Assembly (NCBI GenBank): GCA_000165345.1
Contig: CM000432.1
Location: 704,001 to 768,000 of the forward strand
Direction of reading: 5' to 3'
Length of the DNA: 64,000 bases
Part shown: positions 12,406 through 13,890 of the stretch, one piece after another
Layout of the letters: each line of letters begins with the position of its first letter
Position numbering within the stretch: the stretch's first letter is position 1
Program-made: the position numbers and the translations under genes
Notes under the pieces: model-generated
Told to the model about the DNA's origin: nothing
The model's input: only the letters and a program-made list of their open reading frames with translations
Databases searched by the model: none

Positions 12406-13890
12406 TCAGTTGTTTTCTTCACTCTCAACTTCGTCTTTGTCCTCGGTTCCTAGTAATTCTGGTTGCCCTTCTTCCTCTTCTTCCTCTTCTTCTTCTTCTT
12501 CTCCTTCTACTTCTTCTGCTTCTTCCTCTTCTTCAGCCTCTTCAAGTTGCTTCTTTCTGAGGTTCTCTTTTACTTCACGCAGATGGTCAAATGAATTAAT
12601 ATCGGGTAAAATATTGTTAAAAATACTTTGGCAATCTGAAATAAGTACTGTGATACATTCGACACATGGTGGAATGGATTGAAACATCGTAATGTTTTTC
12701 ATACTATTAGGTCTACAAAATGCAGGGGATAAAATTTCAGCAATTTTATGTGCTGTCATATTATTAATGCTCGACTTTGTTGAAACAAAATGTAGGAAAT
12801 CAACTAAGAATTTTATTACCAATTTTGAACTATCTGGTAACTTTGAAATAGTCTCCTTAAGGAAATTAATATAGAAGCTGTGGGCTAATTCATGGGTGCC
12901 TGAGCTTTTACATTGCCTTACAATTGAATGAAATGTTTCCGAACCCAGTAAAGGCTCATCCAAAGAGTTGAGTATCAATTTAAATGCAGACACTAGGGTA
13001 GATGGATCTGAATCAGCAGATCTGAATGGAACTCCACTATCAACTTCTCCAATTATTGAAGTAAGTTTGTCGGCAGATGTTTGTAAGCTAAACAAATTTG
13101 GGATTATAACAATGTCAGGTTTAGATAGCTTTTGGACGAAATCAACAATGACGGCTGGTATTTTACCGTATCCTGGAACATTATAACCATTACAAATACA
13201 TTGCTCCAATAAGCTCATCGATAATAATGCCGGAGCCTCTAATCCTAGAAGTTCTGCATCATCGTGCTTAACAATAAAAGGTAGTCTATTTAGTAACTCT
13301 TCTTCTGAAATGTCAGGAATAAAGCGATATAATTCTCTTATTGAATCTGCATACTCGAGCTTTCTCATAAACCTCGGAGACATGTAAGAACTTGTAATCG
13401 TTAATAATGCACGATTACTTACACCATAATGAAACATTATCACTTTTTTTAGATTTTTTTTATATTCTGTAGGCAATAGAGAATAAAATTGCTGTAGAAA
13501 GTTTGAGCTGCCATCACTTAGAATATTTGTTCTAGTTAAACATTGAATGATAATAAATTCGGTTCTCACAAATTCTTTAGTGTAATGAACTGCATATCTC
13601 ATTGCCTTATCAAGTTCATCTACTGTGGGAGGAAGAAAACAAGATACCAACATTATTACTGGCCTTTGAAGCACATCATCTCCTAAATAAAAAATAAACC
13701 TCGTTTCTTCATAGCTTAATATGGATTTTTAGGAAGTTAATTTTACTTGTTTAAGCGACGTTTATAGTATATTTTTGTTTACTTACCTATTAAATACTTT
13801 ATCCTGAGTTGCTTCTATTATTGCTTCGTAATAGCTGGGATCGACTTCAGCATCCGAGTCCATGTAATATCCTGTATTACGTAGAAGCAT
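12406..13890 (-). CDS. Sec14/CRAL-TRIO-like + RhoGAP-domain protein with acidic C-terminal tail; probable 5' exon at 13787..13890
   Basis: N-terminal half has a CRAL-TRIO-like pattern (FLQQFYSLLPTEYKKNLKKVIMFHYGVSNRALLTITSSYMSPRFMRKL). The C-terminal half is a RhoGAP fold (VSAFKLILNSLDEPLL; LPDSSKLVIKFLVDFLHFVS; NNMTAHKIAEILSPAFCRP, compare the GAP consensus NKMTxxNLAIVFGPxLLRP). The Arg-finger position reads IIPNLFSLQTSADKL (consensus GIFRxSG), so Arg is replaced by Ser. Upstream ATG at 13890 opens a 104-nt exon ending ...AATAG|GTAAGT (13786). Only the acceptor CAAAG| (13665-13664, 123-nt intron) keeps frame; the stronger-looking TTTATTTAG| (13684-13683) would give a stop. The C-terminus is a poly-Glu tract. 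Confidence 0.5.
12466..12545 (-). repeat. GAA/GAG trinucleotide (poly-Glu-coding) microsatellite inside the RhoGAP-like gene
   Basis: + strand reads (CTT/CTC)n for about 80 nt and encodes EEAEEEEEAEEVEGEEEEEEEEEEEG. Confidence 0.7.

Follow-up and report, generated by a model that had tools for sequence, protein, structure and literature searches.

A finger-less p50RhoGAP-type protein of Cryptosporidium parvum, probably a non-catalytic pseudoGAP with relatives across Myzozoa

We analyzed a gene for a RhoGAP-like protein located in a 64,000-nucleotide (nt) stretch of DNA (GenBank assembly GCA_000165345.1, contig CM000432.1, positions 704,001 to 768,000 of the forward strand), which is referred to here as the window. 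The gene, on the minus strand at positions 12406-13890 of the window, is the already annotated Cryptosporidium parvum cgd4_2980, and its product of 470 amino acids (aa) combines a BCH domain with a RhoGAP-like domain in which the catalytic arginine (the arginine finger) is replaced by serine. We consider this protein to be probably, at a rough probability of 0.62, a conserved pseudoGAP, i.e., a finger-less protein of the p50RhoGAP type that would serve as a non-catalytic binding module. Judged by its sequence, it belongs to the pseudoGAP class in the sense of PMC8305018, a RhoGAP fold being present and the catalytic arginine absent. The gene, its architecture, its counterparts in Plasmodium and Toxoplasma, and finger-less RhoGAP-like domains as a kind are already known; that the entire apicomplexan and dinoflagellate p50RhoGAP branch is finger-less and monophyletic appears to have gone unremarked so far. 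The missing arginine is not mentioned in the word-searched texts of PMC13644383 and PMC5719419 or in the gene passages of PMC7911406, the open-access papers that a search for the gene identifiers brought up. cgd4_2980 is the Cryptosporidium orthologue of PfSec14-5 (PF3D7_1007200) and of Toxoplasma TGME49_233300, a link made through the annotation name of a great-ape Plasmodium protein together with PMC13644383; the other orthologues were compared directly. The gene and the parts of its product are as follows.

12406..13890, minus strand: whole gene cgd4_2980, ATG to stop, two exons, encoding the 470-aa BCH and RhoGAP-like protein
13258..13665, minus strand: BCH domain (Pfam CRAL_TRIO_2), aa 52-187, PF13716 E=1.2e-31
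13423..13470, minus strand: BCH hallmark motif region TEYKKNLKKVIMFHYG, aa 117-132
12706..13158, minus strand: RhoGAP-like domain, aa 221-371, PF00620 E=8.2e-20
12409..12546, minus strand: Glu-rich low-complexity C-terminal tail, read from the sequence

Loss of the arginine finger and of neighboring determinants

The residues of the catalytic site lie in the following segments.

13087..13089, minus strand: Ser244, codon AGC, at the arginine-finger position (ARHGAP1 R282), placed by two alignments and a census of relatives
12967..12981, minus strand: helix-B determinants, with Lys280 (= K319) kept and Asn284 (= R323) lost
12724..12747, minus strand: helix-F determinants, with Lys358 (= N391) and Glu361 (= V394) lost and Pro365 (= P398) kept

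A preliminary description of this DNA, made from the letters alone, had proposed that serine takes the place of the arginine finger, and this assignment held. The ARHGAP11A segment EGLFRKSGS aligns to PNLFSLQTS of cgd4_2980, and an independent profile search set the ARHGAP1 segment EGIFRRSAN, which contains R282, against the same residues, Ser244 thus standing opposite the finger in both cases. Among the eight Cryptosporidium orthologues the finger position reads S/S/G/S/S/N/N/T. A substitute arginine nearby was the objection that the preliminary description itself had anticipated; no Lys or Arg occurs within ±6 residues of the finger position in any of the eight orthologues, and the serine assignment therefore survives small alignment shifts. 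Elsewhere in the domain, Arg266 (in VPFRS) is invariant in Cryptosporidium and absent in Plasmodium, and Arg369 (in FCRP) aligns with a position that is often basic or aromatic in ordinary RhoGAPs. Four residues before the finger, Cryptosporidium has Pro, Plasmodium and Besnoitia have Lys, and one further relative (P0014) has Arg.

Losses were also observed beyond the finger itself. When compared with the list of p50RhoGAP determinants in PMC8305018 (R282, K319, R323, N391, V394, P398), three of the five positions besides the finger are replaced in cgd4_2980 (R323N, N391K, V394E), and K319 and P398 are retained. We infer that the domain would not accelerate GTP hydrolysis by the arginine-finger mechanism. 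The earlier proposal that the protein acts as something other than a Rho GAP is a reasonable one, and the three further lost determinants strengthen it.

A BCH-RhoGAP architecture shared with p50RhoGAP

Both domains were recovered by Pfam well above the cut-offs, with 110 bits (cut-off 23) for PF13716 and 71.6 bits (cut-off 24.5) for PF00620, the latter over profile positions 1-147 of 148. The Sec14/CRAL-TRIO plus RhoGAP composition given in the preliminary description was thus upheld as regards the Sec14 superfamily and the RhoGAP domain. The type of the first domain had to be amended, as PF00650 and CRAL_TRIO_N gave no match at E<=0.001 in the 470-aa protein and the matching family is the BCH family PF13716. 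In group III BCH proteins the BCH domain is N-terminal and a RhoGAP domain comes after it (PMC3313917), and the same order is present in cgd4_2980. Among solved structures, the best relative is full-length human ARHGAP1/p50RhoGAP (6r3v), found with E=2.9e-12 using a Cryptosporidium profile. The BCH region of cgd4_2980 aligns to the BCH region of ARHGAP1 in this structure and the alignment is colinear from there to helix F of the GAP domain, so that the resemblance to p50RhoGAP first suggested by the order of a Sec14-like and a RhoGAP domain extends over both of them. When a model of the RhoGAP-like domain alone, computed with AlphaFold2 (AF2; predicted template modeling score 0.66), was compared with the PDB using Foldseek, the top 50 matches were all RhoGAP or BH domains, with template modeling scores of 0.43-0.60. 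The AF2 model of the exon-2 translation had a predicted local distance difference test (pLDDT) value of 59.5.

The BCH hallmark has been described as R(R/K)h(R/K)(R/K)NL(R/K)xhhhhHPs (Gupta et al., PMC3313917). In cgd4_2980 the corresponding stretch is T-E-Y-K-K-N-L-K-K-V-I-M-F-H-Y-G, in which the core hKKNLKxhhhhH (YKKNLKKVIMFH) is retained, and invariant in Cryptosporidium, whereas the first two basic positions and the Pro of the group III hallmark differ. Proteins with the BCH domain are tied to the binding and regulation of small GTPases and not to lipid transfer (PMC3313917, PMC13644383), which leaves a lipid-binding module as the weaker of the two functions suggested in the preliminary description, the other being a GTPase scaffold.

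The same order and spacing of the two domains is thus found in cgd4_2980 and in ARHGAP1 (also in the group III BCH and RhoGAP proteins ARHGAP8/BPGAP1 and S. pombe C1565.02c), and the BCH core, K319, and P398 are likewise common to cgd4_2980 and ARHGAP1. In contrast to ARHGAP1, the parasite protein has replacements at R282, R323, N391, and V394, an acidic low-complexity tail, and a conserved DSDxE motif near its N-terminus, and it resides in a cellular context reported to lack a Rho substrate. Specifically, the N-terminal acidic motif reads (Y)MDSDAEVDP (13846-13860, minus strand, aa 11-15), and DSDxE is also N-terminal in Plasmodium (MLDSDAEV), Besnoitia (YLDSDEEV), Theileria (LYDSDSEQ), Babesia (VFDSDGEQ), and Blabericola (AFDSDIEA). 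It fits a predicted casein-kinase-2-type S-x-x-E site and was not found in the dinoflagellate members of the clade described below. The Plasmodium, Besnoitia, Theileria, and Babesia proteins behave as orthologues, with full-length colinear matches (E=5e-65 to 7e-30), the same Pfam architecture, no finger, the Leu-Gln motif discussed below, and the N-terminal DSDxE. However, cgd4_2980 is shorter (470 aa versus 520-785), and its tail is rich in Glu whereas the tails of these orthologues are rich in Ser, Lys, and Asp.

A monophyletic finger-less clade in Apicomplexa and dinoflagellates

Word-indexed protein searches with the single protein, with a Cryptosporidium profile, and with a 16-sequence myzozoan profile retrieved only the same eight Cryptosporidium proteins. 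When 1.84 billion representative proteins were searched exhaustively with a profile, 1346 matches at E<=0.001 were obtained, and the six determinant columns were scored in the best 150 of these. Within these 150, canonical relatives carried R-K-R-N-I/V-P almost without exception, and a finger-less class carried x-K/R-D/N/G-x-E/K-P, its finger position being occupied by S/N/C/A/T/Y/D/G/F/H. Named members of the finger-less class included proteins of Plasmodium (annotated as 'rhoGAP GTPase, putative'), Besnoitia, Theileria orientalis, T. equi, Babesia microti, and another piroplasm, the gregarines Digyalum and Blabericola, the squirmid Platyproteum, and two dinoflagellates, one of which was Noctiluca.

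A neighbor-joining tree was built from 98 near-full-length matches over 365 columns (capped Poisson distances, 200 bootstrap replicates). In this simple distance tree, in which long-branch attraction is possible, the 29 finger-less sequences were monophyletic with a bootstrap of 200/200. The loss of the finger is therefore old and shared across Myzozoa, and the motifs NNMT and F(F/C)RP are conserved throughout the finger-less clade. Most likely, the catalytic site was dismantled once, before the split of apicomplexans and dinoflagellates, and the protein has been kept since. The only clearly independent finger-less case outside the clade was that of the fungus Smittium: the BCH-RhoGAP relatives of Smittium angustum and Furculomyces boomerangus (P0127/P0171) lack the arginine and read TLFNLTT. 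This loss in Harpellales gut fungi is apparently independent of the myzozoan one.

The preliminary description had stated that apicomplexans lack Rho GTPases, and the literature agrees: Apicomplexa were found to have neither Rho nor RhoGEFs (Fort and Blangy, PMC5499878) and are likewise reported to lack Rho GTPases by Yutin et al. (PMC2651865). Among the genera looked for, the main text of the RhoGEF survey names no dinoflagellate, perkinsid, or chromerid genus, and a 2026 survey of microsporidian GTPases contained nothing on RhoGAP or Apicomplexa. Since the dinoflagellate relatives are also finger-less, this state is not peculiar to the Rho-less apicomplexans and is not simply a consequence of the loss of Rho in Apicomplexa.

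Finger-less RhoGAP-like domains have been described in the human proteins OCRL1, INPP5B, ARHGAP36, DEPDC1/1B, and FAM13B, and in the BH domain of PI3K p85 most binding determinants and conserved residues around the finger are missing, although not the arginine itself (PMC8305018). OCRL1 and the p85 BH domain were both among the sequence and fold matches of cgd4_2980. On the one hand, the animal finger-less domains resemble the myzozoan one in having a RhoGAP fold without a working catalytic site, used for binding. On the other hand, they represent independent losses in other architectures (5-phosphatase-ASH, SH3-BH-SH2, DEP), whereas the myzozoan loss took place within a p50RhoGAP-type architecture and is ancient and clade-wide.

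A binding module without catalysis as the preferred explanation

According to the reading that we favor, cgd4_2980 would descend from an ancestral eukaryotic protein of the p50RhoGAP/ARHGAP1 type, in which a RhoGAP domain followed the N-terminal BCH domain, and its RhoGAP-like domain would survive as a non-catalytic protein-binding module, as in OCRL1, INPP5B, ARHGAP36, and DEPDC1. More tentatively, the BCH domain might direct the protein to endomembranes or to a prenylated small GTPase (Rab), by analogy with p50RhoGAP, whose BCH domain is needed for endosomal localization and for binding of Rab5 and Rab11 according to the passage of PMC2938388 that cites Sirokmany 2006. The RhoGAP-like domain might then recruit or sequester a partner, the pair of domains acting as an adaptor, and in Plasmodium this adaptor activity might touch the invasion or gliding machinery.

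PfSec14-5 (PF3D7_1007200) has been described as a BCH-type protein without an N-terminal Sec14 domain (PMC13644383). The abstract of the same paper does not include it with the P. falciparum Sec14 proteins for which rescue of yeast sec14-ts is reported, and the gene is described there as refractory to disruption in P. falciparum. In a merozoite line that was long-lived and more invasive, a stop codon had arisen within the RhoGAP domain of PfSec14-5, and a yeast two-hybrid result links the protein to the glideosome connector GAC (PMC5719419).

Several points weigh against a pseudoGAP role. A missing arginine finger is no proof of inactivity, as the RanGAP and Rap1GAP families work without one. 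Two residues of the GTPase-contact surface, K319 and P398, are kept, and the protein may therefore bind, or even regulate, a small GTPase. The AF2 models are weakest at the finger loop (pLDDT<50), and therefore no geometric argument on alternative catalytic residues is made from them. The absence of Rho from the C. parvum genome is a premise reported in the literature, and a Toxoplasma review names two 'hypothetical Rho-like GTPases' (PMC7911406). The T. gondii orthologue of PfSec14-5 and, in blood stages, that of P. berghei are reported as dispensable (PMC13644383). Finally, the Plasmodium phenotype is correlative, the same line having a second non-synonymous change, in GAC (PMC5719419).

Apicomplexa and dinoflagellates have long kept one p50RhoGAP-type protein with a dismantled catalytic site, Rho and its exchange factors being reported as discarded in Apicomplexa. 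If the pseudoGAP reading is correct, this is a clean natural case of a regulator outliving the family of its substrates, and it would show which portion of the RhoGAP domain is retained when catalysis is gone. Database entries for the orthologues of Plasmodium, Babesia, and C. felis bear the name 'rhoGAP GTPase, putative', which is misleading and offers no basis for inferring Rho signaling in these parasites, and the hints of an effect on merozoite invasiveness in Plasmodium would be better read in terms of binding than of GAP activity.

Other functional explanations

The protein could alternatively be a still-active GTPase-activating protein retargeted to a non-Rho GTPase (Rab, Arf/Arl, Ran, or a lineage-specific one), working by switch stabilization or through Gln246 as a trans-acting glutamine. 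This glutamine belongs to a Leu-Gln pair (aa 245-246, 13081-13086, minus strand) that directly follows the finger position, replaces the x-Ser of F-R-x-S-G, and is invariant in Cryptosporidium, Plasmodium, Besnoitia, Theileria, Babesia, and Platyproteum, which speaks in favor of such an activity, as do the retained K319 and P398 and the purifying selection on the domain. The presence of the p85 BH domain, an atypical RhoGAP fold, among the sequence and fold matches points in the same direction; p85 is reported to act on Rab5 and Rab4. However, the pair is absent in Blabericola and in the dinoflagellate-type members and is shifted by one residue in Digyalum, so that Gln is not a clade-wide catalytic residue. 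Moreover, the finger position varies freely (S/N/G/T/C/A/Y/D/F/H), and R323, N391, and V394 are lost. We therefore regard retargeting as unlikely.

A related and more speculative idea, which we hold to be rather improbable, is that the finger-less BCH-RhoGAPs of Myzozoa are no dead enzymes but a family re-purposed in function. The core-apicomplexan RhoGAP-like domain, with its invariant Leu-Gln in what was the finger loop, would regulate a non-Rho partner, either a Rab such as Rab11 (by a glutamine-based or otherwise finger-independent mechanism) or GAC, and so couple endomembrane delivery to gliding and invasion in organisms that do without Rho signaling. As a separate observation, the RhoGAP domain of ArhGAP12, which matches aa 269-381 of cgd4_2980 by sequence and by fold, has been crystallized with G-actin (6gvc). 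It is a precedent for a RhoGAP domain with a non-GTPase cytoskeletal ligand, and by analogy it may be relevant to parasites whose gliding is actin-dependent.

We also considered whether the RhoGAP-like half is a relic left after the loss of Rho, with only the BCH domain functional and the remainder a tolerated appendage. The reported absence of Rho and RhoGEFs from Apicomplexa (PMC5499878, PMC2651865), the loss of four of the six determinants, and the dispensability of the orthologues mentioned above fit this view, as does the rate of change of the domain. The proportion of nonsynonymous differences (pN) in the RhoGAP-like domain was 0.15, 0.24, and 0.28 against C. felis, C. ryanae, and C. andersoni, respectively, and the corresponding values for the BCH domain were 0.07, 0.14, and 0.23, so that between C. 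parvum and C. felis the former evolves at about twice the rate of the latter. The acidic tail, however, had values of 0.36-0.47, and the pN of the RhoGAP-like domain is far below that of this unconstrained segment. The synonymous proportion (pS) between Cryptosporidium species was saturated, at 0.70-0.80, and pN and pS are given instead of rate estimates (dN/dS) for this reason. Purifying selection thus acts on both domains, with the tighter constraint on the BCH domain, and the tail is weakly constrained. A relic is likewise hard to reconcile with a full-length Pfam match (E=8e-20) after a divergence spanning Apicomplexa and dinoflagellates, with the clade-wide retention of NNMT and F(F/C)RP, and with the association of a truncation within the domain with a phenotype in P. 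falciparum (PMC5719419). This explanation is accordingly a poor one in our view.

Lastly, a secreted effector that acts on host Rho GTPases during invasion or actin-pedestal formation, in the manner of bacterial RhoGAP mimics, would give the domain a target that a parasite without Rho does not otherwise offer, and Cryptosporidium remodels host actin, but this candidate was rejected as highly improbable since the protein has no N-terminal hydrophobic signal-like segment (maximum 12-residue hydropathy 0.11 in the first 40 aa), no transmembrane-like segment, and neither the arginine finger nor the other Rho-contact residues that were lost, and since its orthologues occur in dinoflagellates (such as Noctiluca, which is free-living) as well as in blood parasites whose host cells are of a very different kind.

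Exon structure and the position of the acceptor

On the minus strand, the coding sequence starts with the ATG at 13890, ends with the stop codon at 12406-12408, and is interrupted by one intron.

13787..13890, minus strand: exon 1, 104 nt, codons 1-34 plus 2 nt, encoding MLLRNTGYYMDSDAEVDPSYYEAIIEATQDKVFN
13715..13786, minus strand: intron, 72 nt, phase 2, GTAAGT...TTAAG
12406..13714, minus strand: exon 2, including the stop codon
13664..13714, minus strand: 51-nt coding segment, YEETRFIFYLGDDVLQ plus the last base of Ser35, placed in the intron by the preliminary description

The spliced model is 100% identical to C. parvum QOY42142.1 (database name 'Sec14D and RhoGAP domain-containing protein') and to UniProt F0X4T9 ('Cgd4_2980 protein'). 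The short 5' exon with donor AATAG|GTAAGT, which had been proposed to precede the long open reading frame (ORF) from GTG 13674, was confirmed by conservation: its peptide is kept in the C. felis, C. ryanae, C. xiaoi, and C. andersoni proteins, and the intron has the same position and phase in all three species whose DNA was compared (71 nt in C. felis, 92 nt in C. ryanae, and 80 nt in C. andersoni). The exon is therefore real, but it is not unannotated, as had been supposed, because the current 470-aa QOY42142.1 contains it and only the 2004 GenBank model XP_625883/EAK87926 (440 aa, 'partial') lacks it. XP_625883 begins with KSILSYEE, of which the first four residues come from the last 13 nt of the intron (13715-13727); the 2004 model thus both misses exon 1 and reads intron.

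The preliminary description had also held that the acceptor at 13664 was the only one to preserve the frame, which proved incorrect, as acceptors ending at 13715, 13700, and 13664 all do so. The acceptor in use is the one at 13715 (TTAAG|C), giving the 72-nt intron; this follows from the shared position and phase of the intron and from the conservation, as protein, of the 17 residues SYEETRFIFYLGDDVLQ that the 13664 acceptor (123-nt intron) would delete. These residues occur in the orthologous proteins, the distant C. andersoni having SYHGTRFLYYLCEDNLG, and in the alignment of the 51-nt segment C. andersoni has no AG at the position of the 13664 acceptor. Acceptors 13664 and 13700 were rejected on the basis of this conservation in orthologues and of the missing AG in C. 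andersoni. Identity in the 51-nt segment was 0.94 with C. felis (3 differences, at codon positions 0/0/3) and 0.79 with C. ryanae (12 differences, at 2/1/9), compared with 0.54-0.68 for the intron against C. felis, C. ryanae, and C. andersoni; with C. andersoni, the segment had an identity of only 0.56, which is not above the intron level there. The acceptor-like TTTATTTAG, which had been taken for a strong site, consists of the codons for F-Y-L-G. The predicted junction of the 72-nt intron joins TTTAATAG to CTATGAAG, whereas the 13664 acceptor would join it to GCCAGTAA. Homology to human ARHGAP1 does not separate the two splice models (E=4.4e-11 versus 8.1e-11).

The locus and its neighbors

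The window has a G+C content of about 33% and densely packed long ORFs, and it is Cryptosporidium DNA. The neighbors of cgd4_2980 encode a DEAD-box helicase, ALG11, and XPF/ERCC4. The helicase and ERCC4 also flank the orthologue in C. felis, C. ryanae, and C. andersoni, and ALG11 was additionally called beside it in C. felis and C. ryanae. Within the window, the XPF/ERCC4 orthologue is represented by two minus-strand ORFs, at 9838-11733 (631 aa) and 8690-9541 (283 aa), which are separated by a gap of 296 nt, and the ERCC4 nuclease domain is found only in the second. In C. felis, C. ryanae, and C. andersoni the orthologue is instead a single protein with a length of 932-984 aa, and the split is probably due to an intron or a model fault between 9541 and 9838.

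Three tRNA genes were observed in the same region. That for tRNA-Ile(UAU) (12207-12283, plus strand) lies on the strand opposite to cgd4_2980, 122 nt past its stop codon; tRNA-Thr(CGU) (11882-11955, minus strand) is located between tRNA-Ile(UAU) and the XPF gene, and tRNA-Val(UAC) (5971-6044, plus strand) is more distant. The 3' end of cgd4_2980 is overlapped by plus-strand ORFs at 12365-12682, 12381-12560, and 12463-12594 (105, 59, and 43 aa), the products of which would be Ser-, Leu-, and Phe-rich. These three ORFs mirror the GAA/GAG-rich tract that encodes the acidic tail and should not be counted as genes.

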